The notes beneath the pieces were generated by a model. It saw only the letters and a program-made list of their open reading frames with translations. It was not told the DNA's origin and made no database searches. A DNA stretch of 19,742 bases, taken from a virus (lineage: Duplodnaviria; Heunggongvirae; Uroviricota; Caudoviricetes). Positions 4,797 through 19,742 of the stretch are shown one piece after another. The position numbers were made by a program, and so were the translations under genes. The stretch is from the IMG/VR virus record IMGVR_UViG_2534681835_000041; one strand, written 5' to 3'. How positions within the stretch are numbered: the stretch's first letter is position 1; each line of letters opens with the position of its first letter.

Positions 4797-5143
4797 TGGC
4801 TGCCTCCTTTGCGAAGCCGTTCCGCCCATTCTTCAAGGGATTTCTCTGCATATTCACCGGACAGGCCATCAATCGGATGCGATTCATTAGCTAACTCTTC
4901 TTTTGCTGACAGAATCATGCGTGTAACGTCGAAAACTTCAGCCAAAGGCTTATTGATAAATCCGTGATTGAAAGCAGCAGCAAGACGGCTTGCGGTATAG
5001 TTAATACCCTCGTTGCGAGCCTCAGCACGTACTTCATCGAATTTACGCACCAGATACTCAGCATTTGTTTCATTCACTTTCAGATCTCGCGGTACACATT
5101 TCCCGCGAAGAAACCCTTCCATTTCGAAAACATTCATGCGCAT
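4793..5143 (-). CDS. hypothetical phage protein (116 aa)
   Basis: ATG at 5143 overlaps the 3' end of the HD-domain gene; stop overlaps the downstream GTG start. Acidic, helical-looking sequence with no recognised motif. Confidence 0.5.
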   Translation of the reverse strand: MRMNVFEMEGFLRGKCVPRDLKVNETNAEYLVRKFDEVRAEARNEGINYTASRLAAAFNHGFINKPLAEVFDVTRMILSAKEELANESHPIDGLSGEYAEKSLEEWAERLRKGGSQ

Positions 5144-5638
5144 TTGTGTAACTCCGATAACTCGTTAAAACGTTCCATAAACATCCCGTAGGCATGGCTA
5201 GGTGCCAGTGGAATCACGTTGAACATCTCTGTTGCCGGGATGCCTTCCAGTACAGGCCAGAAAGAGCCATCATCAAGCCCGAGATCGCGGCGTTCGGTTG
5301 CCAGCATGATAAGATCGGCATATTTCACGGGCGTACTCATAACTGGGGGTAACCCGTATTTCTCACGGATTACGGCGTCAATTTTTTCTTCCATCCGTTT
5401 ATAGTCAGGAAGAAGGCGTTTCAGTGGAGCGGGGATGTCCTGGCAATACGCTTCTGTTGCATCATGCATTAATGCTTCAAAAGCAAATTCCTGCGGTACC
5501 AGCTGGCTGCAAAGAACCGCATGTTGGGCGACGCTGTAGAAGTGCGAAAGATGACCGGCAAAGCGACAGATATTTGAAAGGGAAACCGCGATATCGTTAA
5601 TATCGATGTCGTCTTTATTTATCCTGTCATAATAAAAA
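5134..5638 (-). pseudogene. HD-domain phosphohydrolase (YfdR-like 5'-nucleotidase type), 5'-truncated at the IS boundary
   Basis: The track ORF starts at an internal Met (5469), but the frame stays open upstream to the IS end at 5639 ('...NICRFAGHLSHFYSVAQHAVL...ALMHDATE...', H and HD motifs). No ATG, GTG or TTG precedes the first His motif before the IS. Confidence 0.6.
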
Positions 5639-5692
5639 TGAACCGCCCCGGAAATCCTGGAGACTAAACTCCCTGAGAAAGAGGTAAACAGG

Positions 5693-6019
5693 ATGACTAA
5701 AAATACTCGTTTTTCCCCCGAAGTCCGTCAGCGGGCGATTCGTATGGTTCTGGAAAGTCAGGATGAATATGACTCACAGTGGGCGGCAATTTGTTCCATT
5801 GCCCCAAAGATTGGCTGTACGCCGGAGACTCTGCGTGTCTGGGTTCGCCAGCATGAGCGGGATACCGGGGGCGGTGATGGTGGGCTCACCAGCGCTGAAC
5901 GTCAGCGTCTGAAAGAGCTGGAACGTGAAAATCGTGAACTGCGCCGCAGTAACGATATCCTTCGCCAGGCTTCCGCTTATTTTGCGAAGGCGGAGTTCGA
6001 CCGCCTCTGGAAAAAATGA
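5693..6019 (+). CDS. IS3-family transposase OrfA (HTH, leucine-zipper)
   Basis: 108 aa '[22 protein letters not shown]...[30 protein letters not shown]'; ends in an A6 tract at 6011-6016 overlapping the orfB start. Confidence 0.9.
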
Positions 6020-6906
6020 TGCCACTGCTGGATAAGCTGCGTGAGCAGTACGGGGTCGGACCGGTATGCAGCGAACTGCATATTGCCCCGTCAACGTATT
6101 ACCATTGTCAGCAACAGCGACATCATCCGGATAAACGCAGTGCCCGTGCGCAGCACGACGACTGGCTGAAGAGAGAGATACAGCGCGTATACGATGAAAA
6201 TCATCAGGTGTACGGTGTGCGTAAAGTCTGGCGTCAGTTGTTACGGGAAGGAATCAGGGTGGCCAGATGTACAGTGGCACGTCTCATGGCGGTTATGGGA
6301 CTTGCCGGTGTTCTCCGGGGTAAAAAGGTCCGTACGACCATCAGCCGGAAAGCCGTTGCCGCAGGCGACCGCGTAAACCGTCAGTTCGTGGCAGAACGAC
6401 CTGACCAGCTGTGGGTGGCTGATTTTACTTACGTCAGCACATGGCAGGGCTTCGTCTATGTGGCGTTTATCATTGATGTGTTTGCCGGATACATCGTGGG
6501 GTGGCGGGTCTCATCGTCTATGGAAACGACATTCGTGCTGGATGCGCTGGAGCAGGCGTTGTGGGCCCGTCGTCCGTCTGGCACCATCCATCACAGCGAT
6601 AAAGGCTCTCAGTATGTGTCACTGGCCTATACGGAGCGACTAAAAGAAGCCGGATTACTGGCATCAACAGGGAGTACAGGCGACTCGTATGACAACGCGA
6701 TGGCTGAGAGCATCAATGGTCTTTACAAAGCGGAGGTAATACACCGTAAGAGCTGGAAAAACCGTGCAGAAGTGGAACTGGCCACACTAACGTGGGTGGA
6801 CTGGTATAACAATCGACGATTGCTGGGAAGGCTGGGCCATACTCCTCCGGCAGAAGCAGAAAAAGCTTATTATGCTTCCATCGGAAACGATGATCTGGCA
6901 GCCTGA
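6016..6906 (+). CDS. IS3-family transposase OrfB (DDE integrase core)
   Basis: 296 aa with the rve-type core ('WVADFTYV', 'HSDKGSQY', '[15 protein letters not shown]'); ATG at 6016 overlaps the orfA stop in the -1 frame. Confidence 0.9.
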
Positions 6907-6948
6907 GTTCACAGATAAAACACTCTCCAGGAAACCCGGGGCGGTTCA

Positions 6949-7354
6949 GTTCTTTGACTGGTTCAAAAGAGTGACTGGTTCTGGGTGAATCTCCTGCACT
7001 ACCCCCTGGTGCAACTCCTGCACTACCTGGTGAATTTGCTGCACCAGATAGTGAATTATTTGCACTACTCCCTGGTGAATCTCCTGCACCATCCAGATGA
7101 AGGAGATAGATATTAATTGAGTTACCTTTTTCACCTTTCCGGGTGACTTTTTTTACCAGCCCGGAATCACAAAGGGCCGCAATATGATTCATCACAGAAC
7201 GTTTGCTAATCTCGCACTGATCAGCAATATGCTGGTAGCTGGGCCAGCACTCACCCTGATCGCTGGCATTATCAGCCAGCTTGATCAGAACCAGTTTTCG
7301 CAATGGATTACCCACTCGAATTTTCATCGCTTTAACCATCAGCTCCATACTCAT
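6949..7354 (-). pseudogene. replication initiator O-like gene (N-terminal HTH domain), 3'-truncated by IS copy 1
   Basis: N-terminus 'LRKLVLIKLADNASDQGECWPSYQHIADQCEISKRSVMNHIAALCDSGLV' resembles the N-terminal DNA-binding region of lambda O and related replisome organisers. The ORF continues through iteron-encoded low-complexity sequence and then reads into the IS. ATG at 7354 overlaps the upstream stop. Confidence 0.5.
6983..7094. repeat. five imperfect ~21-25-bp direct repeats (iteron-like) inside the O-like ORF, next to an AT-rich stretch
   Basis: Units built on gtgaat/gtgcaa..tcctgcac start at 6985, 7009, 7030, 7051 and 7076 (spacing 24/21/21/25 bp); an AT-rich segment follows at about 7100-7140. 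Confidence 0.5.
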
Positions 7355-7575
7355 GCTGCACCTCCGAGATGCTTCATGTTTTTTCCGGAGCGAAAGGCTA
7401 TAAGCGGCATACTGACGCGGTAATTACGGCCCAGCGGTTCACAAATCACCTTCTGGCATTCACGGTCAACCAGGCTAACACGTAGAACATGCCCTGCAGG
7501 CGTGGTGTACCACTGACCCGGACGAGGACAACGGAAAGTTTGATTGGTAAACCGTTTGAAAATATTCCGGATCAT
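7351..7575 (-). CDS. hypothetical small protein (74 aa, Cys-containing)
   Basis: ATG at 7575 overlaps the stop of the Rha-domain gene (ATGA), and its own stop overlaps the O-like ATG (ATGA). No motif recognised. Confidence 0.45.
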   Translation of the reverse strand: MIRNIFKRFTNQTFRCPRPGQWYTTPAGHVLRVSLVDRECQKVICEPLGRNYRVSMPLIAFRSGKNMKHLGGAA

Positions 7576-8735
7576 TTGCGCCCCCTTACCTCTGAAGGGT
7601 TCAGCGACAAATTTATGAGGCAGGCCAGCGCCGAAGCATCATTAATATAGTCATATAAGCTAACAGCCAGCGGAGATTCGGCTTTTGCCAACATAGGATA
7701 AAGCTGCTGCAGCCAGACCTGATGAATTGATGAAATGTAGGAATAGAGAACACTGGCGTTATGTGCAACGTCGCTCGGTACAGAGGGCTTTGAAAGCTGT
7801 TTCTCCATCTGGTTAAAGGCATTGATGTATGCCTCTTTGAACTGGGCAGCACGTTTGCCAGTGAAGCCCATTGCCAGGAACGCGAAGCCGTCGCGGGTGA
7901 TGTGGTAGCAAGGAAGTTTGCGAGTACCGCCGTTGGGCTGGTGTACCAAAATTGATGTCTCCGCAAAATTGCGGGCACAAAACTCTGGAGAACAATCCAA
8001 AATGCGGATCTTTTTCAGAACATCGTCATGACGTTTAGAGAAGAAGTCAGCAACAGCCAAAGAAGATGTAACAGCCTGACCATCAACGATGGCAATTTCA
8101 GGTTGAGAGAGGGTTGGGAGAGTAGTCATGGTGACAGCCCCGGTAGTCAGTTTTTCAGAAAACTCACCACATGGGACGCCAATCACAGAGGTGGTGAGAC
8201 GTACAGGGTTGGCGTTACCGGAGACTACCGAACCCGGCCCGACCGAAGTCGGCCCTGTACGCCCCACCATAATTTGGGCGTAGCAATGCTCATGACACGA
8301 AAAAACCGCATGAGCGCGGTTATGCTCAGTAATCAATTTCAGGACGCCAATCCCGGCACCCGCTTTATAAGGTGCCTGAACAGTGTAACGTCCCGGAATG
8401 GCAGAATCAATGTGCTGGTGGTCCTTCACACTCAACAAAATCACGCCTGAATTTCCACAAAGGACTAAAGCACTCATGCGGGTAGTCTTTGCGAAGATAG
8501 ATAACGCGCTGTGTTTCTGGCTCCCAACGAATAACATGAACATAAAGTCCTCTTCCGTCACGAAACCAGCGGTTAAGTTCCTGCACAACTCGCCCCCCAC
8601 AGTCAGGTAAAGTTCTCTGTGGTTACTTACAGCCAGGTGATTTGGTAATCTGCATTCATACCGTAACAACAGGTGTTCAGCGACGCTGACCACCAGCTGT
8701 TGCGACAAACGGTTATTTGCCGTTAAACTGTTCAT
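7572..8735 (-). CDS. Rha-family phage regulatory protein with an unusual ~200-aa N-terminal extension
   Basis: Residues ~205-300 ('PEIAIVDGQAVTSSLAVADFFSKRHDDVLKKIRIL...YHITRDGFAFLAMGFTGKRAAQFKEAYINAFNQME') match the Rha domain. The 387-codon frame is open from an ATG at 8735 that overlaps the CII-like stop (ATGA). Alternative internal start at 8129 would give a 185-aa Rha-only protein. Confidence 0.5.
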   Translation of the reverse strand: MNSLTANNRLSQQLVVSVAEHLLLRYECRLPNHLAVSNHRELYLTVGGELCRNLTAGFVTEEDFMFMLFVGSQKHSALSIFAKTTRMSALVLCGNSGVILLSVKDHQHIDSAIPGRYTVQAPYKAGAGIGVLKLITEHNRAHAVFSCHEHCYAQIMVGRTGPTSVGPGSVVSGNANPVRLTTSVIGVPCGEFSEKLTTGAVTMTTLPTLSQPEIAIVDGQAVTSSLAVADFFSKRHDDVLKKIRILDCSPEFCARNFAETSILVHQPNGGTRKLPCYHITRDGFAFLAMGFTGKRAAQFKEAYINAFNQMEKQLSKPSVPSDVAHNASVLYSYISSIHQVWLQQLYPMLAKAESPLAVSLYDYINDASALACLINLSLNPSEVRGRK

Positions 8736-9283
8736 GCGTTAGTTTCTCCACAGACACAAAACGCCACGACGCCCGGAGCTGCACACTCGCGGGCGTCACT
8801 CTTTTCTGGAGCGCAAAAGATTTTGTAGACCAGTGCTGCATGCTCCTGGAGCTTCGAAATTGACAGATACAACTCATCATTAATTGCTGTCTGCTCGTGT
8901 GGCTCCACTACCCCATCTTCGATTGCCGAACGAATCTGCTTTGAGTAACTCCCGATCTGTTCGATGACTTCCAGCAGGCGCTGGTTTATATCGGCGTTCT
9001 CTACTTCCTCAAGTTCAGGAAGCGATACAAACACCCCACCAGCAGACTGTGCGACAGCATCCGCAATGTAGTGAGTGCCAGCCGCGCGCTGTAAAATCAT
9101 TGCCCATCCCAGCGGGAAAATCTGATCGCCATCTGCACGAAGGCGGTTGAATAAAGCGTTCTCTGTTACATCCAGCCACTCAGCAGCTTCAGCGTAACCC
9201 CCCGGCAACGCCGCGATAGTTTTTCTGACAGCTTTCACGTACCACTCAGGCTGTTTTTCCACTTTCCAGTGATGCTTACCCAC
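8732..9283 (-). CDS. phage regulatory CII-like protein (CP76-type), tentative
   Basis: 183 aa; pattern '...ALFNRLRADGD...GGVFVSLPELEE...' resembles the CII/CP76 family as I recall it. GTG start at 9283 with AGGAG 7 nt upstream; overlaps the cro-like 3' end by 8 nt. Confidence 0.5.
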   Translation of the reverse strand: MGKHHWKVEKQPEWYVKAVRKTIAALPGGYAEAAEWLDVTENALFNRLRADGDQIFPLGWAMILQRAAGTHYIADAVAQSAGGVFVSLPELEEVENADINQRLLEVIEQIGSYSKQIRSAIEDGVVEPHEQTAINDELYLSISKLQEHAALVYKIFCAPEKSDARECAAPGVVAFCVCGETNA

Positions 9284-9536
9284 GGCTTATCTCCTGTTCC
9301 TGTGGTTTAAACCCATTCTGGTTTTGGCTAGATTGAAAACGTGCCGGATAAAGAATCTGCATTTCGCTGATTTCACCCTTAAAAAAATTGGCCAGACGTT
9401 CTGCAAGATCGATAGATGGAATTTGTTCCAGTCTTTCAATACGACTCAGCGTCGCTGTATTGACCTGAACGCCCGCAGCAACATGCTGCAAAGTAAATCC
9501 GTGCGCCTTACGCACATTCCGTAATGGTGATTGCAT
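9276..9536 (-). CDS. Cro-like HTH (XRE-family) regulator
   Basis: 86 aa with HTH 'FTLQHVAAGVQVNTATLSRIE'; ATG at 9536 with GGAGG 5 nt upstream; transcribed divergently from the CI-like gene across an operator-rich spacer. Confidence 0.65.
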   Translation of the reverse strand: MQSPLRNVRKAHGFTLQHVAAGVQVNTATLSRIERLEQIPSIDLAERLANFFKGEISEMQILYPARFQSSQNQNGFKPQEQEISRG

Positions 9537-9633
9537 ATAACCTCCACATATTGCGTGATGAGCATATTATTTCACGCAAATATTTTGCGCAAGTTGATTT
9601 GCTTAACGCGCAATAAAGAAATGTAATAAACGC
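9537..9633. promoter_or_regulatory. oR-like immunity control region with divergent promoters (pR-like toward cro, pRM-like toward cI)
   Basis: Inverted repeats TTGCGTGA(9551-9558)/TCACGCAA(9572-9579), palindrome TTGCGCAA (9585-9592), TTGC-N7-GCAA (9599-9613). Minus-strand TTGCGC(-35)-17-TAATAT(-10). Plus-strand TTGCTT-18-TAATAA ending 6 nt before the cI ATG, which has no SD. Confidence 0.5.
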
Positions 9634-10326
9634 ATGAACATAGGAAATCGAGTCAGACAACTTCGCCAGGCGAAGAACATGAAAATCGCCGATCTCGCTG
9701 AAGCAATAGGAGTGGATGCGGCGAATATCTCGCGCCTCGAAACAGGTAAGCAGAAACAATTCACTGAACAAGCCCTGAGTAATATTGCCAGGAGCTTAGG
9801 TGTTGATATTGCTGATCTCTTTACCTCAGACCTCAAAAGTAATACTGTATGTAAAAACAGTATTAGTGAGGATGTTGCGCAGGTGAAGGATGTATTCCGT
9901 ATTGAAATGCTGGATGTCAGTGCCAGTGCGGGAAATGGCCTTATCCAGGGCGGTGATGTCATTGATGTGATTCATGCCATTGAATACAGAACTGATAATG
10001 CTGTATCGATGTTTGGTGGACGACCAGCAAATCACATTAAAGTTATCAACGTTCGTGGGGACAGTATGTGTCCAACCATTGAGCCAGGAGATCTCATCTT
10101 CGTTGATATCAGTATCAATCAGTTTGATGGGGATGGTATATATGTATTTGGTTTTGATGATAAAATTTACGTCAAACGACTGCAAATGATACCTGATAAA
10201 CTGCTGGTAATTTCTGATAATCAGATTTACCGCGAATGGGGAATTACCAGCGAAAACGAACATCGGTTTATGGTCTTTGGAAAGGTCTTAATCAGTCAGT
10301 CACAAACCCTTAAGCGACACAATTAA
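9634..10326 (+). CDS. CI-like phage repressor (HTH plus S24 LexA-type autopeptidase domain)
   Basis: N-terminal HTH ('MKIADLAEAIGVDAANISRLETG'); C-terminal S24 motifs 'VRGDSMCPTIEPGD' (Ser nucleophile) and 'KIYVKRL' (Lys). Confidence 0.8.
   Translation: MNIGNRVRQLRQAKNMKIADLAEAIGVDAANISRLETGKQKQFTEQALSNIARSLGVDIADLFTSDLKSNTVCKNSISEDVAQVKDVFRIEMLDVSASAGNGLIQGGDVIDVIHAIEYRTDNAVSMFGGRPANHIKVINVRGDSMCPTIEPGDLIFVDISINQFDGDGIYVFGFDDKIYVKRLQMIPDKLLVISDNQIYREWGITSENEHRFMVFGKVLISQSQTLKRHN
9843..9862. promoter_or_regulatory. near-consensus LexA (SOS) box inside the cI coding sequence
   Basis: TACTGTATGTAAAAACAGTA, against consensus TACTGT-(AT)4-ACAGTA: both outer hexamers match exactly. A possible -35 TTTACC at 9820-9825 places the box over a -10 position (TACTGT). 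Confidence 0.5.
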
Positions 10327-10348
10327 CCCCCTACCTCAACATCAATTA

Positions 10349-10368
10349 GCCACCAGAAGGTGGCTTTT
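10349..10368 (+). terminator. rho-independent terminator downstream of cI
   Basis: Stem gccacc / ggtggc with agaa loop, followed by TTTT at 10365-10368; 23 nt after the cI stop. Confidence 0.6.
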
Positions 10369-10382
10369 CATTACCCACCAAA

Positions 10383-10435
10383 TTGCATATCTCGCAATAA
10401 AAACACTTGCACAATGCGCAACTTCATTTTATCTT
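10383..10435 (+). promoter_or_regulatory. oL-like operator pair with a candidate pL-like promoter
   Basis: Two perfect TTGC-N7-GCAA sites (10383-10397, 10407-10421), the same motif as at 9599-9613; TTGCAC(10407)-17-TATCTT(10430-10435) as a possible rightward promoter. Confidence 0.45.
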
Positions 10436-10846
10436 TCTTTCCAGACCTACAAACAAGGTACTAACAAAATTTGGTTGTAACACGGCGTATGGCACATGCG
10501 TCGTTAGCGGTCTGGGGACGTTAAAGGGGACAATCCACTCCTTGCTCGGGCAAACAAACCAGGTAGCCGGAATGTGCAAGTCAATGAGGATGCTGATAAG
10601 ACGCCTAACCAGCGTGGCGATTCGGTTTGACGCCTGGGAAGAGACCAGGGTGCAACGATGAGGGCATTTATGGAACCGCGACAAAGTGTGGTGCCGTAAC
10701 TGGCTAAGTGCTCTCAGCGTTGTGGTAATCCGCGAAATGGCGCGGCGGTAAGTATGGCGGGGTTATTCCTTCCCCGTTGAGGACACCGGGTTGTCAGGTT
10801 GACCATACGCTTAAGTGACAAGCCCACCACAACAGCCACTGCTTTG

Positions 10847-10892
10847 GCGGTACCAGTTTGTACACTTGCTTCCGGCTGGTACCGCTCTTTTT
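10847..10892 (+). terminator. strong hairpin plus T-run in the leader upstream of the first rightward gene; overlaps a boxA-like motif
   Basis: Perfect 10-bp stem gcggtaccag(10847-10856)/ctggtaccgc(10876-10885), 19-nt loop, then TCTTTTT. CGCTCTTTTTAC at 10884-10895 resembles boxA (CGCTCTTTAACAA). Confidence 0.5.
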
Positions 10893-11029
10893 ACAAAACA
10901 GAGAAGAGCATCACCGGACGACGGGCTCATAACCCAATCCACCCGGGCGGCTGCCACCGCAGGTGTTCTTCTCTGTTTTGTGGAGAAACCAACCGACCTT
11001 GCAGGGTCGATATGATGAGGAGCAGCAAA

Positions 11030-11392
11030 ATGGCTAGCGAACGCAGTACTGATGTGCAGGCATTTATCGGGGAGCTGGACGGCGGCGTATTTGAAACCAA
11101 AATCGGCGCAGTTCTCAGTGAAGTCGCTTCCGGTGTGATGAACACGAAAACCAAAGGTAAGGTCTCACTCAACCTGGAAATCGAACCATTTGATGAGAAC
11201 CGTGTGAAAATCAAACACAAACTCTCATATGTTCGCCCGACTAACCGCGGGAAAATTTCCGAAGAAGACACCACCGAAACGCCGATGTATGTCAATCGCG
11301 GTGGTCGCCTGACTATTCTGCAGGAAGACCAGGGACAATTACTGACTCTTGCCGGTGAACCTGACGGAAAACTCCGCGCAGCAGGTCATTAA
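11030..11392 (+). CDS. hypothetical phage protein (120 aa)
   Basis: ATG at 11030 with GAGGAG 7 nt upstream; the track ORF extends upstream to 10799 but that part is low-complexity with no RBS. Size and position resemble a CPS-53 YfdP-type gene, recalled from memory only. Confidence 0.5.
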   Translation: MASERSTDVQAFIGELDGGVFETKIGAVLSEVASGVMNTKTKGKVSLNLEIEPFDENRVKIKHKLSYVRPTNRGKISEEDTTETPMYVNRGGRLTILQEDQGQLLTLAGEPDGKLRAAGH

Positions 11393-11457
11393 TATCGTTC
11401 TTAATTAACTGATTATTTATCTCATCACTGAATATCTTTATATAGTGAGGACTTATT

Positions 11458-12282
11458 ATGTCTCAGAACTTAGACGCAACCGCAATTAATCAAATCCATG
11501 CCCTTATTTCTGCTCAGGGTGTTAATGAAATTATCAGTAAGATTGGTGCCGATGCTGTGGCATTGCCTGAGAATTTCCGCATTCATGATCTGGAAAAATT
11601 TAATTTAAATCGCTTCCGTTTCCGTGGTGCGCTTTCCACTGCCAGCATCGATGACTTTACCCGTTATTCTAAAGATCTTGCAGATGAAGGCACCCGCTGC
11701 TTTATTGATGCTGATAATATGCGTGCCGTCAGTGTGCTTAACCTGGGTACTATTGATGAACCAGGTCACGCAGATAACACCGCCACTCTCAAACTGAAAA
11801 AGACAGCACCGTTCTCTGCTCTGTTGTCTGTTAATGGCGAGCGTAACTCCCAGAAATCACTGACAGAATGGATTGAAGACTGGGCCGACTACCTTGTGGG
11901 CTTTGATGCTAATGGTGACACCATTCAGGCAACAAAAGCGGCTGCGGCGGTCCGTAAAATCACGATTGAAGCAAACCAGACCGCTGATTTTGAAGATAAT
12001 GACTTCAGCGGCAAACGCTCCCTGATGGAGTCTGTCGAAGCGAAGACCAAAGACATTATGCCAGTGGCATTTGAATTTAAATGCATTCCGTTTGAAGGTC
12101 TGAAAGAACGTCCGTTTAAATTACGCCTCAGCATTATCACTGGCGATCGTCCGGTACTGGTTCTGCGCATTATTCAGCTGGAGGCGGTGCAGGAAGAAAT
12201 GGCTAACGAATTTCGTGATCTGCTTGTTGAGAAATTCAAGGACAGCAAAGTAGAAACCTTTATTGGTACTTTCACCGCCTGA
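11458..12282 (+). CDS. hypothetical phage protein (274 aa; possibly YfdQ/DUF2303-like)
   Basis: ATG at 11458 with GAGG 7 nt upstream; long ORF with ordinary composition. The family assignment rests on size and context recall only. Confidence 0.6.
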
Positions 12283-12409
12283 TTTCATTACTGCAAATGC
12301 CCCTGAGGGGGCATTTATGGAAACGTAATTTACTCAATAATCGCCGGATGGTGAGGGATTCTTTTTACCAGAATTCAGCGCGGTGCAGCGCATATACGTG
12401 GAGAACAAA

Positions 12410-12853
12410 ATGTCATTTATTAAAACTTTTTCCGGGAAACCAGTCAATGAACCAATAGCTGTTGGTGAATCTGCTGATGAGTCTGTGCGAGTTCGTTCAA
12501 ACCGACCGGAATACTCTCCGGAGTTTGAGCAGGCATGGCTGGCATATCCCAAACGTGCTGGTGGCAATTCAAAATCTGCAGCCTTCAAAGCCTGGAAAGC
12601 CCGTTTGAATGAGGGGGTAAACCCCGAAACCATGCTGGAAGGTGTGAAACGCTACGCGGGCTGGGTATCTGCGATGGGTAACAGCGGCACACAATTTGTG
12701 AAACAGGCTGTCACGTTCTTTGGTCCGGATCGTCATTTCGAAGAATCCTGGGAAGTTCCTGCGGTATCTGCAGCCAGACGTGAGGACCCGTACTTCAAAG
12801 CCAGTTACGACAACGTGGACTACAGCCAGATCCCGGCAGGATTCAGGGGGTGA
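12410..12853 (+). CDS. hypothetical phage protein (147 aa) with 'FEQAWLAYPKRAGG..KSAAFKAWKA' motif
   Basis: ATG at 12410 with GGAG 6 nt upstream (the track ORF starts at a GTG at 12383). The motif resembles ones I associate with phage replication-associated proteins, unverified. Confidence 0.5.
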   Translation: MSFIKTFSGKPVNEPIAVGESADESVRVRSNRPEYSPEFEQAWLAYPKRAGGNSKSAAFKAWKARLNEGVNPETMLEGVKRYAGWVSAMGNSGTQFVKQAVTFFGPDRHFEESWEVPAVSAARREDPYFKASYDNVDYSQIPAGFRG

Positions 12854-12855
12854 TC

Positions 12856-12948
12856 ATGAGTCTGTTAAATGACGTTCAGAAATTCATTGAAGCCCATCCG
12901 GGCTGTACTTCCGGAGACATTGCGGATGCTTTTTACGTGGGGGCTTAA
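12856..12948 (+). CDS. candidate 30-aa micro-ORF between the 147-aa gene and the Dam-like gene
   Basis: ATG at 12856, 2 nt after the upstream stop, with AGGGGG upstream; its TAA overlaps the Dam ATG (TAATG). Supported only by tight operon packing. Confidence 0.3.
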   Translation: MSLLNDVQKFIEAHPGCTSGDIADAFYVGA

Positions 12949-13601: not shown

Positions 13602-13924
13602 CGACGTTAACTCAATGCCAGCAGCAGGTGCTGGATATGCTGATTTCTTACCAGAAAGAACGTGGCTTCCCGCCAACTAATCAGGAGGTGGCAACCATGC
13701 TGGGATACCGTTCAGTGAATGCAGCGGTGGAGCATCTTCGCGCACTGGAGAAAAAAGGCGTCATCACGATAAAGCGTGGCGTGGCATGGGGGATAACGCT
13801 TCATACCGCGGTGAAGGACGACGACAGCGAGGCAGCCGGGATTATCCGCGCACTGCTTGCCGGTGAGGAAAACGCCAGACTGCGTGCAGCCCACTGGTTA
13901 CATGAGAGGGGCCTGAAAGTATGA
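13598..13924 (+). CDS. LexA N-terminal DNA-binding-domain homolog lacking the S24 peptidase domain
   Basis: 'MTTLTQCQQQVLDMLISYQKERGFPPTNQEVATMLGYRSVNAAVEHLRALEKKGVITIKRGVAWGITL' aligns by eye with E. coli LexA 1-70 ('[68 protein letters not shown]'). The protein ends at 108 aa with no Ala-Gly cleavage site or Ser/Lys dyad. Confidence 0.7.
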   Translation: MTTLTQCQQQVLDMLISYQKERGFPPTNQEVATMLGYRSVNAAVEHLRALEKKGVITIKRGVAWGITLHTAVKDDDSEAAGIIRALLAGEENARLRAAHWLHERGLKV

Positions 13925-14277
13925 AGCTGATCCTGCCTTTCCCGCCCAGCGTGAACACGTACTGGCGACACCCCAACAAAGGGGCGTTTGCTGGTAAGAG
14001 TCTGATAAGCGCAGCGGGGCGCAAATTCCAGAGCGCGGCATGCGCAGCAATAGTTGAGCAGTTACGTCGTCTGCCGAAACCAACGTCGGCACCTGCTTCA
14101 GTGGAGATCGTGTTGTTTCCTCCGGATAACCGGATCCGCGATCTGGACAACTATAACAAGGCGCTGTTTGACGCCCTGACCCACGCGGGTGTGTGGGAAG
14201 ACGACAGACAGGTGAAAAGAATGCTGGTGGAGTGGGGACCGGTTATCCCGAAAGGGAAGGTCGAGATCACTATCTGA
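13921..14277 (+). CDS. rusA: RusA-family Holliday junction resolvase, 3' end replaced by the IS insertion
   Basis: 'LPFPPSVNTYWRH...RDLDNYNKALFDALTHAGVWEDDRQV' matches RusA. The stop codon TGA (14275-14277) is supplied by the first bases of the IS; the displaced 11-codon tail is found after the IS at 15588-15623. Confidence 0.75.
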   Translation: MKLILPFPPSVNTYWRHPNKGAFAGKSLISAAGRKFQSAACAAIVEQLRRLPKPTSAPASVEIVLFPPDNRIRDLDNYNKALFDALTHAGVWEDDRQVKRMLVEWGPVIPKGKVEITI

Positions 14278-14316
14278 ACCGCCCCGGGTTTCCTGGAGAG
14301 TGTTTTATCTGTGAAC

Positions 14317-15207
14317 TCAGGCTGCCAGATCATCGTTTCCGATGGAAGCATAATAAGCTTTTTCTGCTTCTGCCGGAGGAGTATGGCCCAGCCTTCCCAG
14401 CAATCGTCGATTGTTATACCAGTCCACCCACGTTAGTGTGGCCAGTTCCACTTCTGCACGGTTTTTCCAGCTCTTACGGTGTATTACCTCCGCTTTGTAA
14501 AGACCATTGATGCTCTCAGCCATCGCGTTGTCATACGAGTCGCCTGTACTCCCTGTTGATGCCAGTAATCCGGCTTCTTTTAGTCGCTCCGTATAGGCCA
14601 GTGACACATACTGAGAGCCTTTATCGCTGTGATGGATGGTGCCAGACGGACGACGGGCCCACAACGCCTGCTCCAGCGCATCCAGCACGAATGTCGTTTC
14701 CATAGACGATGAGACCCGCCACCCCACGATGTATCCGGCAAACACATCAATGATAAACGCCACATAGACGAAGCCCTGCCATGTGCTGACGTAAGTAAAA
14801 TCAGCCACCCACAGCTGGTCAGGTCGTTCTGCCACGAACTGACGGTTTACGCGGTCGCCTGCGGCAACGGCTTTCCGGCTGATGGTCGTACGGACCTTTT
14901 TACCCCGGAGAACACCGGCAAGTCCCATAACCGCCATGAGACGTGCCACTGTACATCTGGCCACCCTGATTCCTTCCCGTAACAACTGACGCCAGACTTT
15001 ACGCACACCGTACACCTGATGATTTTCATCGTATACGCGCTGTATCTCTCTCTTCAGCCAGTCGTCGTGCTGCGCACGGGCACTGCGTTTATCCGGATGA
15101 TGTCGCTGTTGCTGACAATGGTAATACGTTGACGGGGCAATATGCAGTTCGCTGCATACCGGTCCGACCCCGTACTGCTCACGCAGCTTATCCAGCAGTG
15201 GCATCAT
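14317..15207 (-). CDS. IS3-family transposase OrfB (copy 2)
   Basis: Identical 296-aa translation to 6016-6906. Confidence 0.9.
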
Positions 15208-15530
15208 TTTTTCCAGAGGCGGTCGAACTCCGCCTTCGCAAAATAAGCGGAAGCCTGGCGAAGGATATCGTTACTGCGGCGCAGTTCACGATTTTCACGT
15301 TCCAGCTCTTTCAGACGCTGACGTTCAGCGCTGGTGAGCCCACCATCACCGCCCCCGGTATCCCGCTCATGCTGGCGAACCCAGACACGCAGAGTCTCCG
15401 GCGTACAGCCAATCTTTGGGGCAATGGAACAAATTGCCGCCCACTGTGAGTCATATTCATCCTGACTTTCCAGAACCATACGAATCGCCCGCTGACGGAC
15501 TTCGGGGGAAAAACGAGTATTTTTAGTCAT
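15204..15530 (-). CDS. IS3-family transposase OrfA (copy 2)
   Basis: Identical 108-aa translation to 5693-6019. Confidence 0.9.
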
Positions 15531-15642
15531 CCTGTTTACCTCTTTCTCAGGGAGTTTAGTCTCCAGGAAACCCGGGGCGGTTCAATCAGTAAGTACGAGA
15601 AAACGGCGGGTGCAGCCGCCTGATCAAGAGGAGAAACGAAGT

Positions 15643-16441: not shown

Positions 16442-17437
16442 GTGACCGTGAGAGCGCTACTGACCCCTGAAATTGCCCCGCGTATGGGGATCGTATTGTT
16501 CAGGCCCGGTTCAGAGCTGATGCCCCTGTTTATGCAGGGGCGTGTCCTGCTGGAGCCTGAGCCGGAACGTTATTCATCTTTCGCCAGTGGTGCCGTTCCG
16601 GCGGCATCACAACCGCTGGCGGATGATCCTGCCGTTCGGGCCGTGTTCCGCAATGAGGCAGTGATTCGTCGTGCTGGTGGAGTGGAATGTCTTGAACGCT
16701 GGTTACTTCGTGAAAAAGGTTGCCAGTGGCCTCATTCCGACTGGCACAGCGAGAACATGACCACAATGCGACACACGCCGGGCGCAATCCGTCTGTGCTG
16801 GCACTGCGATAACCAGCTGCGCGATCAGTTCACGGAACGGCTGGAATCAATGGCAACGGATAACTGTACCCGCTGGGTGTTGTCTGTTGTGCGTCGGGAT
16901 CTCGGTTTTGATGACAGTCACGTTGTGACAATGCCGGAACTGTGCTGGTGGCTGATTCGTAATGACCTGGCGGATGCCTTACCGGAAAGTGCAGCCCGTA
17001 AGGCACTGAGATTACCGAAGCCTGTTGTGCCGTCTGTCACCCGGGAAAGTGACCTTGTGCCTTCGGTTCCTGCCACCAGCATCATCCAGGATAAAGCGAA
17101 AAAGGTGCTGGCGCTGAAAGTGGATCCGGAGTCGCCGGAGTCTTTTATGTTACGCCCAAAACGTCGCCGCTGGGTTAATGAAAAGTACACGCGCTGGGTT
17201 AAGACACAGCCGTGTGCATGTTGTGGAAAGCCCGCTGATGATCCCCACCACCTGATAGGCCACGGTCAGTGTGGAATGGGTACAAAAGCGCATGACCTTT
17301 TTGTGTTGCCTTTGTGCAGAAAGCATCACGACGAGCTGCATGCGGATACCGTGGCATTTGAAGAGAAGTATGGCTCTCAGCTGGAGCTGATATTTCGTTT
17401 TATCGATCGTGCGCTGGCAATTGGCGTACTGGCGTAA
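16442..17437 (+). CDS. DUF968-like protein with C-terminal HNH-type Cys/His motif
   Basis: C-terminus 'CACCGKPADDPHHLIGHGQCGMGTKAHDLFVLPLCRKHHDELH' is HNH-like, as in YdfU-type proteins. GTG start at 16442 directly after the KilA-N stop; the true start is uncertain. Confidence 0.6.
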   Translation: MTVRALLTPEIAPRMGIVLFRPGSELMPLFMQGRVLLEPEPERYSSFASGAVPAASQPLADDPAVRAVFRNEAVIRRAGGVECLERWLLREKGCQWPHSDWHSENMTTMRHTPGAIRLCWHCDNQLRDQFTERLESMATDNCTRWVLSVVRRDLGFDDSHVVTMPELCWWLIRNDLADALPESAARKALRLPKPVVPSVTRESDLVPSVPATSIIQDKAKKVLALKVDPESPESFMLRPKRRRWVNEKYTRWVKTQPCACCGKPADDPHHLIGHGQCGMGTKAHDLFVLPLCRKHHDELHADTVAFEEKYGSQLELIFRFIDRALAIGVLA

Positions 17438-17450
17438 GTGGAGAACGAGC

Positions 17451-18203
17451 ATGAACCTTGAAGCCTTACCGAAATATTACTCCCCGAAATCTCCAAAACT
17501 GAGCGATGACGCACCGGCGACAGGCTCTGGTGGTTTAACAATTACGGATGTGATGGCTGCGCAGGGGATGGTGCAGTCAAAAGCACCGCTTGGGTTTGCT
17601 TTATTCCTGGCAAAAGTTGGTGTTCAGGATCCTCAGTTTGCGATTGAAGGTCTGCTCAATTACGCGATGGCACTGGATAACCCGACATTGAATAAATTGA
17701 GTGAAGAAACCCGGCTACAGATCATTCCTTACCTTGTGAATTTTGCCTTTGCTGATTATTCCAGGTCTGCGGCAAGTAAGGCTCGCTGTGAGCATTGTGC
17801 TGGTACTGGATTTCATAATGTATTGCGCGAGGTGGTGAAACACTCCAGAAGCGGGGAATCTGTTATTAAGGAAGAGTGGGTGAAGGAACTATGTCAGCAT
17901 TGTCATGGTAAGGGAGAAGTCAGCACAGCATGCAGAGGGTGCAAGGGTAAAGGTATTGTCCTGGATGAAAAAAGAACCCGGCTTCATGGCACGCCTGTTT
18001 ATAAGGTTTGTGGGCGTTGCAATGGAAACCGGTTTAGCCGTTTACCAACCACACTGGCGCGGCTTCATGTCCAGAAGCTGGTACCAGACCTGACGGATTA
18101 TCAGTGGTACAAAGGATATGCAGATGTCATTGATAAACTGGTTACAAAGTGCTGGCAGGAAGAAGCATATGCAGAGATACAATTGAGAAAGGTGACAAGA
18201 TAA
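17451..18203 (+). CDS. putative late-gene antiterminator (Q-like), with four CxxCxGxG repeats
   Basis: Position immediately upstream of a pR'/tR'-like promoter-terminator pair and the tRNA island. Contains CEHCAGTG, CQHCHGKG, CRGCKGKG, CGRCNGNR (a DnaJ-type zinc-finger pattern). ATG at 17451 with GGAG upstream. Function inferred mainly from context. Confidence 0.45.
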   Translation: MNLEALPKYYSPKSPKLSDDAPATGSGGLTITDVMAAQGMVQSKAPLGFALFLAKVGVQDPQFAIEGLLNYAMALDNPTLNKLSEETRLQIIPYLVNFAFADYSRSAASKARCEHCAGTGFHNVLREVVKHSRSGESVIKEEWVKELCQHCHGKGEVSTACRGCKGKGIVLDEKRTRLHGTPVYKVCGRCNGNRFSRLPTTLARLHVQKLVPDLTDYQWYKGYADVIDKLVTKCWQEEAYAEIQLRKVTR

Positions 18204-18234
18204 ATGGTTTTCGCCGAAGATGACGACATGATGC

Positions 18235-18263
18235 TTGCATTTTTCAAAAAATATGGATAAGAT
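18235..18263 (+). promoter_or_regulatory. candidate pR'-like late promoter
   Basis: TTGCAT (18235-18240), 17-bp spacer, TAAGAT (18258-18263), 32 nt after the Q-like stop and about 45 nt upstream of the terminator. Confidence 0.4.
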
Positions 18264-18309
18264 TTTCCCAACGATGGGCTTTGTATGTCTACCGTTGATA
18301 AGATTTAAG

Positions 18310-18333
18310 AACCCGCCGATGCGCGGGTTTTTT
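18310..18333 (+). terminator. rho-independent terminator (tR'-like)
   Basis: Stem aacccgc / gcgggtt followed by a 6-T run. Confidence 0.65.
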
Positions 18334-18513
18334 GTACCCAGAATCCTGTGAGCTATACGGAAAGTACACAGAAAGGAAGGTGCGACCACAATTAATAACA
18401 AAATCTTAAAAATTGCACATGGCACTATTAGTTTTCTAAATATTGTGTATTTTTTGTATTGCAGGATGACCCTGTAACGAATTTTGCGTAACAGCATTTT
18501 GCTCTACGAGTTT

Positions 18514-18542
18514 GCCAGCCTCCCCCAGTGGCTGGCTTTTTT
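18514..18542 (+). terminator. second rho-independent terminator
   Basis: Stem gccagcc / ggctggc, 9-nt loop, TTTTTT at 18537-18542. Confidence 0.6.
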
Positions 18543-18544
18543 AT

Positions 18545-18664
18545 GTCTGTAGCGTCAAAGCAGCAATGTCGCTGGGGCGTCGTGCAATTGGCGTTGAGCT
18601 GGAGACTGAACGTTTTGAGCAGACGGTCAGGGAAGTTCAGGATTTAGTCAGTCAGAACGGATGA
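18545..18664 (+). pseudogene. C-terminal remnant of a DNA methyltransferase gene
   Basis: Translates to '...AMSLGRRAIGVELETERFEQTVREVQDLVSQNG*', which looks like the extreme C-terminus of N4/N6 DNA methylases ('GRR.IG.E' motif). No upstream body of the gene is present. Confidence 0.4.
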
Positions 18665-18666
18665 TA

Positions 18667-18695
18667 TTGCAGGATTAGTTACGTACCGTTATTAT
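18667..18695 (+). promoter_or_regulatory. candidate promoter for the tRNA cluster
   Basis: TTGCAG (18667-18672), 17-bp spacer, TATTAT (18690-18695); tRNA 5' end at 18705. Confidence 0.45.
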
Positions 18696-18704
18696 CCTGC
18701 GCCC

Positions 18705-18780
18705 GGCCCTTTAGCTCAGTGGTGAGAGCGAGCGACTCATAATCGCCAGGTCGCTGGTTCAAATCCAGCAAGGGCCACCA
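18705..18780 (+). tRNA. ileZ: tRNA-Ile2 (anticodon CAT, lysidine type) or tRNA-Met
   Basis: 76-nt cloverleaf folded by hand: acceptor ggccctt/aagggcc, D-stem gctc/gagc, anticodon loop ctCATaa, T-loop ttcaaat, encoded CCA. Close to my recollection of E. coli ileX. Symbol given by analogy with the Stx-phage ileZ-argN-argO cluster. Confidence 0.85.
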
Positions 18781-18789
18781 TATCACATA

Positions 18790-18866
18790 CCGCCATTAGC
18801 TCATCGGGATAGAGCGTCAGCCTTCGAAGCTGGCTGTGCGGGGTTCAAGTCCCCGATGGCGGTCCA
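18790..18866 (+). tRNA. argN: tRNA-Arg (anticodon TCG as read here)
   Basis: 77-nt cloverleaf: acceptor ccgccat/atggcgg, D-stem gctc/gagc, anticodon loop cTTCGaa, T-arm cgggg-ttcaagt-ccccg, encoded CCA. Symbol by analogy. Confidence 0.8.
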
Positions 18867-18879
18867 TTATCAGCATCAT

Positions 18880-18956
18880 GCGTTGTTAGCTCAGCCGGAC
18901 AGAGCAATTGCCTTCTAAGCAATCGGTCACTGGTTCGAATCCAGTACAACGCGCCA
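18880..18956 (+). tRNA. argO: tRNA-Arg (anticodon TCT, reads AGA)
   Basis: 77-nt cloverleaf: acceptor gcgttgt/acaacgc, anticodon stem attgc/gcaat with loop cTTCTaa, T-arm actgg-ttcgaat-ccagt, encoded CCA. Symbol by analogy. Confidence 0.85.
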
Positions 18957-19243
18957 CACCACACTTATCTGCCCTGACTCTCTTTTGCGGGCTTTTTATT
19001 ACAGGAAAGACACCGGACAGTGAAATGTTAAATGCCTCACAATTCAGGTAGTCGACTGTTGCCTGACATGCTGAGCGTTTGTTAAAAAAATCCTGCATGA
19101 TGAATCCCCCTGGGCGGCGGGGCATAATGACAGATGTTTGGTTGCGTATTGTATAGGCAAGTTGCGGATTCTGTCTGGTCATTGCAGAATTCACCGGGAG
19201 GCACCCGGCATCATGCTGTATACAGAGATTAGGCATATATCCA

Positions 19244-19268
19244 GGCTCCTCATCGCAGGAGCCTTTTT
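19244..19268 (+). terminator. rho-independent terminator in the tRNA-to-nanS-p gap
   Basis: Stem ggctcct / aggagcc with 6-nt loop, followed by TTTTT. Confidence 0.6.
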
Positions 19269-19273
19269 ACATG

Positions 19274-19299
19274 CAAAAAAAGCCCGAGTAGGTTCGGGC
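19274..19299 (-). terminator. minus-strand rho-independent terminator (back-to-back with the previous one)
   Basis: Hairpin gcccga-gtaggt-tcgggc (19282-19299) preceded on + by A7 (19274-19280), which is a T-run on the minus strand. Confidence 0.45.
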
Positions 19300-19358
19300 A
19301 ACAGCATGAGATACTTGCATTGTCATTTTTATCGTGTGGATTTTAACCAGGGTTTATA

Positions 19359-19391
19359 AGGCTGCGCAACTGCGCGGCCTTTTTCGTTTTG
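19359..19391 (+). terminator. rho-independent terminator upstream of the esterase gene
   Basis: GC-rich imperfect palindrome aggctgcgca / tgcgcggcct followed by TTTTCGTTTT. Confidence 0.5.
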
Positions 19392-19478
19392 CGGGCTGCG
19401 GTTCTCCTCTTTTGATTCTCCTTGTGGCCGGACCGTGGCCCGCAACTGTTGAGGAAAATCCCGGAAAGGGGAGGAATA

Positions 19479-19742
19479 ATGGCATTTAAACACTATGACG
19501 TGGTCAGGGCGGCGTCGCCGTCAGACCTTGCGGAAAAGCTGACACACAAACTGAAAGAGGGCTGGCAGCCGTTTGGTAGTCCGGTGGCCATAACCCCTTA
19601 TACCCTGATGCAGGCGATTGCAGCAGAAGGTGATGTGGTGGTCAGTGGTGCAACTGAGCCGGATTGGTACTACGTCATCGTACTGGCCGGGCAGTCCAAT
19701 GCAATGGCTTACGGGGAAGGGCTTCCGCTTCCGGATTCATAC
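19479..19742 (+). CDS. NanS-p-like phage esterase (DUF1737 N-terminus followed by an SGNH 'GQSN' block), 5' part only
   Basis: ATG at 19479 with GGGGAGG upstream; 'MAFKHYDVVRAASPSDLAEKLTHKLKEGWQPFGSPV...' then 'VIVLAGQSNAMAYGEG'. Frame is open to the window end. Not in the ORF track because it is incomplete. Confidence 0.55.
   Translation, partial: MAFKHYDVVRAASPSDLAEKLTHKLKEGWQPFGSPVAITPYTLMQAIAAEGDVVVSGATEPDWYYVIVLAGQSNAMAYGEGLPLPDSY

Follow-up and report, generated by a model that had tools for sequence, protein, structure and literature searches.

The window, by which we mean the whole stretch of 19,742 nucleotides that we analysed, is identical in sequence to the chromosome of Escherichia coli O111:H8 strain 8E (NZ_CP077465.1), and it carries the early region of a degraded prophage in which a replication initiator gene lies in two separated pieces. 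The features discussed below are as follows.

5134–5638, minus strand (read 5638 to 5134): the rest of yfdR, to the left of IS629 copy 1.
5639–6948, plus strand: IS629/IS1203 (IS3 family) copy 1, 1310 bp, with its left end at one inversion breakpoint.
6949–7354, minus strand: initiator N-terminal fragment, codons 1–135, recognised by HTH_36 and by identity to mEp460 gp43; a RefSeq pseudogene without a C-terminus.
6949–6984, minus strand (read 6984 to 6949): post-iteron block, 36 of 37 nt, recognised by codon-position conservation, GC3 and linkage to the initiator family.
6985–6999, 7009–7023, 7030–7044, 7051–7065 and 7075–7089: iteron array, encoding the disordered initiator linker, residues 89–125.
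7091–7354, minus strand: winged helix-turn-helix (wHTH), codons 1–88, Pfam HTH_36.
7100–7139: AT-rich stretch, 30% GC, between the wHTH-coding part and the iterons, encoding the wing KGEKGNSINIYLL.
7351–7575, minus strand: 74-aa ORF, early-right operon, just before the initiator.
7572–8735, minus strand: Rha/Ash, early-right operon.
8732–9283, minus strand: cII/YmfL-like, early-right operon.
9276–9536, minus strand: cro-like, early-right operon upstream of the initiator.
9634–10326, plus strand: cI-like repressor, on the opposite strand to the early-right operon.
12411–12439, plus strand: first 10 codons of yfdR (MSFIKTFSGK), fused to the initiator C-terminal fragment at the second inversion breakpoint.
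12440–12853, plus strand: initiator C-terminal fragment, codons 136–272 plus stop, collinear with mEp460 gp43 residues 136–272; RefSeq 'replication protein, missing N-terminus'.
14275–15584, minus strand: IS629 copy 2, with its own 3-bp duplication ATC.

The genes read from 9536 to 6949 follow the order found in phages mEp460 and ST64B (cro, cII-like, Rha, 74-aa ORF and rep), which places the ORF harbouring the iterons, on the minus strand with its start at 7354, at the operon position of the replication gene. The intact order in mEp460 and ST64B is cI, cro, cII-like, Rha, 74-aa ORF, rep, PerC-like, methylase, LexA-like, RusA, KilA-N, DUF968 and Q. In the window the PerC-like gene (12856–12948) is the remnant of an internal deletion with 30 codons (MSLLNDVQKFIEAHPGCTSGDIADAFYVGA and stop) compared with 162 aa in mEp460, and a PerC-like gene truncated to the same length (84 bp in RefSeq) is found at the same position in strain UTAK-1. 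The late region (17409–19742) is Stx-phage-like, with the antiterminator Q and then tRNA-Met(cat)/Ile2-like, tRNA-Arg and tRNA-Arg genes at 18705–18956, directly followed in RefSeq by a nanS-p-type esterase and no stx genes.

The initial annotation had called the iteron-bearing gene O-like and had proposed a profile search of its N-terminal domain. The Pfam scan matched the N-terminal fragment to HTH_36 (E 8e-12) and, below the cut-off, to DnaD_N (3e-5), with no match to Phage_rep_O (the lambda O family) at E<=0.01 for either the fragment or full-length mEp460 gp43. The latter protein (272 aa) has a PHROG replication-initiation match (phrog_270, 1.7e-88; phrog_8540, 7.8e-62), and the N-terminal KLADNASD...GECWPSY motif of the HTH_36 initiator group (SfV orf39 / ST64B sb42 / Eru6; PHROG 270, 8540 and 391) is present in the window gene. 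The gene can be called O-like in a functional sense but not in a familial one, being HTH_36/DnaD_N-like with no Phage_rep_O match. At the DNA level the fragment is 98.9% identical to mEp460 gp43, 98–99% identical to the replication genes of mEp460, Stx2a_1447, Stx2a_WGPS2 and 1720a-02, ~97% identical to that of cdtI and 92% identical to ST64B sb42, and the N-terminal domain of SfV orf39 shares 97.8% protein identity with that of the window. It was found in 932 of 5426 complete E. coli genomes (~17%), with a single copy in the strain 8E genome at the megablast level. By sequence similarity, the window gene belongs, in disrupted form, to the SfV/ST64B/mEp460/Eru6 initiator family.

AlphaFold2 (AF2) modelling gave an N-domain (residues 1–90) with pLDDT values of 74–93 (mostly 82–93) and a helical C-domain (residues 160–225) of moderate pLDDT (~70–78), with the iteron-coded residues forming a disordered linker (pLDDT ~30) between the two folded domains. 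Foldseek searches with the model returned generic winged-helix matches only (best E 0.009), while sequence searches with the initiator gave nothing significant among solved structures and no informative match in NCBIfam. The plasmid pIGRK and pIGMS31 systems were considered as relatives and rejected, as their Rep proteins are unrelated. Stx2a_WGPS2 is the type phage of the Eru6 replication type, and according to the paper that introduced the Eru types, there is no knowledge of the replication proteins of these phages (PMC8951638).

The gene was initially described as truncated, and although it is broken, it is more accurately split: the frame enters IS629 after codon 135, leaving no complete frame of N-domain, linker and C-domain, and codons 136–272 lie at 12440–12853 on the plus strand after an inversion. 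The C-terminal half is now 5.5 kb away on the opposite strand, and both pieces are annotated as pseudogenes in RefSeq. The inversion spans ~6.8 kb (5639–12439), with breakpoints at the left end of IS629 (5639) and between yfdR codons 10 and 11 (12439/12440), so that everything from the N-terminal part of the initiator through cro, cI, yfdP and yfdQ to yfdR codon 10 now runs opposite to the sequence on either side; ~3 bp of yfdR have been lost. In this arrangement the pR operon is directed into the IS, and the pL side into the methylase, rusA and Q genes.

Elements of the IS629/IS1203 type (IS3 family) are 1310 bp long, carry orfA–orfB with a programmed frameshift and produce a 3-bp target duplication. 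Both copies in the window have the TGAACCGCCCCGG terminal inverted repeats and orfA–orfB, and no target-site duplication surrounds copy 1, which the inversion at its left end would explain. The AAC at 12438–12440, on the C-terminal piece, matches the end of the N-terminal piece and looks like a retained IS629 target duplication. The simplest history would be that IS629 inserted into the initiator gene and that an inversion then followed with a breakpoint exactly at the left end of the IS. We rejected recombination between the two IS629 copies as the cause of this inversion, as copy 2 is a simple insertion whose own ATC duplication indicates that it took no part, and no IS is found at the second junction (12439/12440). 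Among the 5426 complete E. coli genomes, the inversion junction was seen in strain 8E only, and none retained the ancestral state in which IS629 had inserted at this site with no inversion (the three full-length matches have another insertion site).

Copy 2 sits in the 3' end of rusA, where the IS terminus supplies the TGA stop of a RusA ORF (13921–14277) of 118 aa compared with 129 aa in mEp460. It should also be noted that an independent IS3-family insertion interrupts the initiator gene of E. coli UTAK-1 after about codon 43 (positions 5283–6591 of that locus, L004), and that the same insertion occurs in strain OkiPb01711, and at a comparable position also in UTAK-6. This suggests that IS elements have entered the initiator gene repeatedly in STEC prophages.

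The iteron array (6985–7089) consists of five 15-bp cores, read on the plus strand, of the dyad-symmetric form GTGMAnnnnnTKCAC, in which the outer bases (GTGMA...TKCAC) make up the inverted repeat. Sequence reading gives the copies as GTGAATCTCCTGCAC at 6985, GTGCAACTCCTGCAC at 7009, GTGAATTTGCTGCAC at 7030, GTGAATTATTTGCAC at 7051 and GTGAATCTCCTGCAC again at 7075, with start-to-start spacings of 24, 21, 21 and 24 bp, and all five are identical to those of mEp460. Tandem Repeats Finder reports a period of 21 with 4.7 copies at 6984–7089. The degenerate pattern GTGMANNNNNTKCAC has five matches in the 19.7-kb window, all of them inside the array, where 0.13 would be expected by chance and where none of 200 dinucleotide-preserving shuffles produced five or more. 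The five direct repeats about two helical turns apart that were first noted in this ORF are real, and like those of lambda they amount to at least three phased dyad repeats in the linker-coding part of an initiator gene, between two folded domains. The IS boundary also lies just past them as described, with IS629 ending on its right at 6948, a distance of 36 bp from the last repeat.

One reading of the array is that the repeats do no more than encode a flexible, low-complexity linker of AGDSPGGS units whose number varies by slippage and which has no role as DNA; such a linker, conserved in full-length homologues and with no origin function, was the observation that would have refuted the original proposal. 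The encoded segment is indeed predicted to be disordered, the peptide is rich in Gly, Ser, Pro and Ala, and the number of units varies freely among near-identical proteins, some of which differ solely in having from one to about nine units (242–302 aa). Some near-identical homologues have one or two units only, which speaks against an origin unless few sites suffice or these prophages are defective.

We compared homologues using one genome per species, which gave 80 loci from Enterobacterales, Pseudomonas, Shewanella, Aeromonas, Marinomonas and others, dereplicated to 60. In 57 of the 60 there are three to eight repeats at the same place (the remaining three have a single detected copy), and all 195 repeat spacings are 21, 22, 23 or 24 bp. 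In 21 of these 60 genes the iterons are not all in one frame, and frames differ between genes as well, so that a given 15-mer may be translated as AGDSP or as VVQEIH, depending on the copy. Across the 32 loci of the helix class of the window, codon positions 1, 2 and 3 of the iteron region carry 1.24, 1.23 and 1.68 bits, compared with 1.57, 1.73 and 0.67 bits in the N-domain of the same genes, and the usual relaxation of the third position is reversed.

The repeat sequence also switches with the recognition helix, and the iteron class matches the recognition-helix class at 60 of 60 loci (the table was read by eye). Helix S[KR]RSVMNHI pairs with GTGMAnnnnnTKCAC iterons, [GSA]RSTVK with GGGGCrG...CTGCCCC iterons, DRSTVRKHI with GTAGGCCCAGAAAGC iterons and [GA][RK]STVRK with CACCAGATAGC-type iterons. 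These classes are also clades, and shared ancestry therefore contributes to the match, but even so the pairing is as expected of cognate initiator–site pairs. Taken together, frame independence, third-position conservation and the tracking of the helix indicate that the constraint is on the DNA and not on the linker peptide. The variation in unit number counts as a further, independent line for DNA sites, as it has its counterpart in lambda and the Stx phages, with four versus six iterons (PMC7466680). The held spacing and the dyad symmetry of the core also speak against a repeat that matters only as peptide, and we consider that reading most improbable.

Directly after the last iteron lies a 37-nt block (CCAGAACCAGTCACTCTTyTGAACCAGTCAAnGAACC) with internal GAACCAGTCA repeats. 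All clades, from E. coli to Pseudomonas, Shewanella and marine bacteria, share it almost unchanged, regardless of the iteron class or the C-terminal domain, and its three codon positions are conserved alike (1.53, 1.58 and 1.54 bits, compared with 0.72 bits for the N-domain third position). In 34 Pseudomonas loci the GC3 of the block is 0.36 compared with 0.75 for the rest of the gene, and in some Shewanella genes its reading frame is a different one. Translation of the block gives PRTSHSFEPVxEP, so that some constraint may act at the protein level as well. All 92 non-redundant IMG/VR contigs with the block have the N-terminal motif of the HTH_36 initiator family upstream of it.

The block is ~56% AT and occupies the position of the AT-rich tract of lambda. 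Mean AT excess downstream of the iterons is +0.08 to +0.11 across the 60 loci, and no bin around the array is AT-enriched more consistently than the block (+0.11). In the window the IS629 end replaces the last base of the block, and the downstream GAACCAGTCAA repeat is also lost; as IS629 begins only at that last base, the cis elements are essentially intact. With five iterons and 36 of 37 block bases remaining, the suggestion that the origin may be intact while its initiator is broken holds up well.

The same wHTH, iterons and block are joined to at least four unrelated C-terminal domains. The repeats and block could on this account be mainly a recombination linker, that is, a patch of homology at a module boundary for C-terminal domain swaps, and it fits this explanation that the block lies exactly at the boundary and is identical in phages of very different hosts. 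However, homology for recombination leaves the 21–24 bp phasing, the dyad symmetry and the link to the recognition helix unexplained, and conservation of the block in Pseudomonas against a GC3 of 0.75 needs purifying selection. Lambdoid O genes, with an ori of proven function, also exchange modules at that site. We regard a mainly recombinational role as very unlikely.

More tentatively, the block could be a core origin element of a widespread phage initiator family, acting as a sequence-specific unwinding or helicase-entry site, and together with the iterons conserved across frames it could give a predicted origin for Eru6 Stx phages and possibly for Eru5; we hold this combined proposal to be quite possible, though slightly the less probable side of the question. 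The block might even be read as single-stranded DNA by the initiator, a suggestion modelled on plasmid Rep proteins, which recognise one strand of the unwinding element sequence-specifically (PMC4081077).

An AT-rich segment beside the repeats had been reported as resembling that of ori-lambda. The segment exists, with 30% GC at 7100–7139, but its position is not lambda-like, as it lies in wing-coding DNA upstream of the iterons in the direction of the gene, on the opposite side from the AT-rich tract of lambda; downstream, where the lambda type has its tract, there is only the ~56% AT block. Because the segment encodes the conserved Lys/Asn/Ile/Tyr-rich wing, its AT-richness may reflect amino-acid content, and at the same offset in homologues the mean AT excess is +0.04 to +0.09; the segment may or may not be an unwinding element. 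No clear, strongly AT-rich unwinding element was found near the array, and the DnaA-box consensus TTWTNCACA is absent from both strands of the 19.7 kb, where about two would be expected by chance.

The absence of a P-like loader nearby was also correctly noted, but it is native to these phages, as the intact mEp460 and ST64B are also without one. In both, no helicase or P-type loader gene is found after the initiator, and the replication gene is followed by PerC-like, methylase and RusA genes. Elsewhere, a DnaB-like helicase, identified by size (~460 aa) and N-terminal sequence only, follows the initiator at four loci (L012, L013, L033 and L045). These are Pantoea, Edaphovirga and Pseudomonas prophages with a C-domain of the W..YPKR.GGN type, in which the helicase sometimes comes after a gene of 210–290 aa, and in the E. 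coli, Salmonella and Leclercia lineage (L001, L002 and L009) initiators of the same type stand alone.

The repeats could also be true sites for the winged-helix protein that serve autoregulation, copy control, incompatibility or the exclusion of related phages, with replication starting elsewhere. Copy control and incompatibility are among the further roles of plasmid iterons (PMC4980987), rep-lambda phages are inhibited by cloned iterons of lambda ori (PMC3349717), and the lack of a clear AT-rich unwinding element or DnaA box nearby would fit sites of this kind. Against this, the flanking block is exclusive to the HTH_36 initiator family, as would be more expected of a complete origin core than of an operator, and no other repeat cluster was noticed in an unsystematic look at the mEp460 and ST64B early regions. 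To our knowledge, every characterised case of linker-coded iterons inside an initiator gene is an origin, including SPP1 oriL and TP901-1. In lambda, 933W and P27, the known iterons of this in-gene, linker-coded kind are the origin itself (PMC7466680). A purely regulatory role is in our opinion unlikely.

We conclude that the array at 6985–7089 probably represents the initiator-binding iterons of the replication origin of a temperate phage of the SfV/ST64B/mEp460 type (Eru6-type), and that the window holds a candidate phage origin inside its own initiator gene, which the splitting of that gene would leave as an orphan. The overall reading of the initial annotation, namely the iterons of a phage origin within the gene of its initiator, with cis elements intact and the initiator broken, is on the present sequence evidence supported. 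In an intact phage, the origin would lie within the part of the initiator gene that encodes the disordered linker between the winged-helix N-domain and the helical C-domain. Winged-helix dimers would bind the dyad-symmetric 15-mers, two helical turns apart and on one face of the DNA, to form an O-some-like complex, and the duplex would open beside the array, the invariant block of 37 nt immediately downstream being the most likely place. The replicative helicase would then be recruited by the C-terminal domain, and as the mEp460/ST64B lineage has no phage helicase or loader gene, it would be host DnaB–DnaC. No near-identical copy of the initiator is found elsewhere in strain 8E at the megablast level, and the origin is thus most likely silent in this strain unless a heterologous initiator of the same helix class is present.

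The locus itself is ordinary, being most likely a dead origin in a degraded prophage, and shows how IS629 reshapes enterohaemorrhagic E. coli prophages. The greater yield is at the level of the family, where the analysis offers a predicted origin made up of the iterons and the invariant block, a recognition code with one helix per iteron class and a case of DNA-level selection through a coding linker, with the invariant block being the part most worth following up. The initiator gene is the replication module of Eru6 Shiga-toxin phages, whose replication is unstudied according to the literature, and since the level of phage replication influences toxin production, a defined origin and initiator would be practical handles. 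The principle of an origin inside its initiator gene is textbook. In the literature that we searched (one key review of phage replication modules was not covered), we found nothing relevant on the iterons or origin of SfV, ST64B or Eru phages or on the literal motifs, and no experiment describing the origin of the HTH_36 initiator family.

The closest relatives of the window are SfV (orf39), ST64B (sb42), mEp460 (gp43), cdtI and Stx2a_WGPS2 (Eru6), which have the same gene in the same synteny and in which an origin is implied by annotation only; unlike in these phages, the window copy is split by IS629 and an inversion. Among better characterised systems, the candidate origin resembles ori-lambda in organisation (as in lambda, 933W and P27), with dyad-bearing direct repeats in the middle, linker-coding part of its own initiator gene, an initiator N-domain that binds the repeats (known for lambda and predicted here) and modular C-terminal domains. 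In lambda and the Stx phages, a change from four to six iterons makes the protein 13 residues longer (PMC7466680). The differences are that the N-domain in the window is HTH_36/DnaD_N-like and not Phage_rep_O, that the cores are 15 bp instead of ~19 bp, that there is no P gene after the initiator in mEp460 or ST64B, and that the ~56% AT block of 37 nt stands in place of the 40-bp strongly AT-rich downstream tract of lambda. By analogy, the window origin would work like ori-lambda but departs from it in two defining respects, the O-family N-domain and the P gene.

A second resemblance is to the replisome organisers of Gram-positive phages, SPP1 G38P (with oriL), TP901-1 and r1t, which have origin repeats within the gene and a C-domain that recruits the helicase system, and in which a dedicated helicase loader and a helicase are encoded beside the initiator gene. 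Their N-domain is DnaD-N-like, and the window initiator shows a weak signal of this kind (DnaD_N, 3e-5; Foldseek match to 2v79, E 0.05), but there is no significant sequence relationship between them beyond a generic winged helix (see PMC5737612 for SPP1 oriL). Iteron plasmids (RK2 TrfA, F RepE and pPS10 RepA) also have phased iterons, a winged-helix Rep and an adjoining unwinding element, but their iterons lie outside rep and their Rep proteins have tandem WH1–WH2 domains, and we put this forward as a likeness of function.
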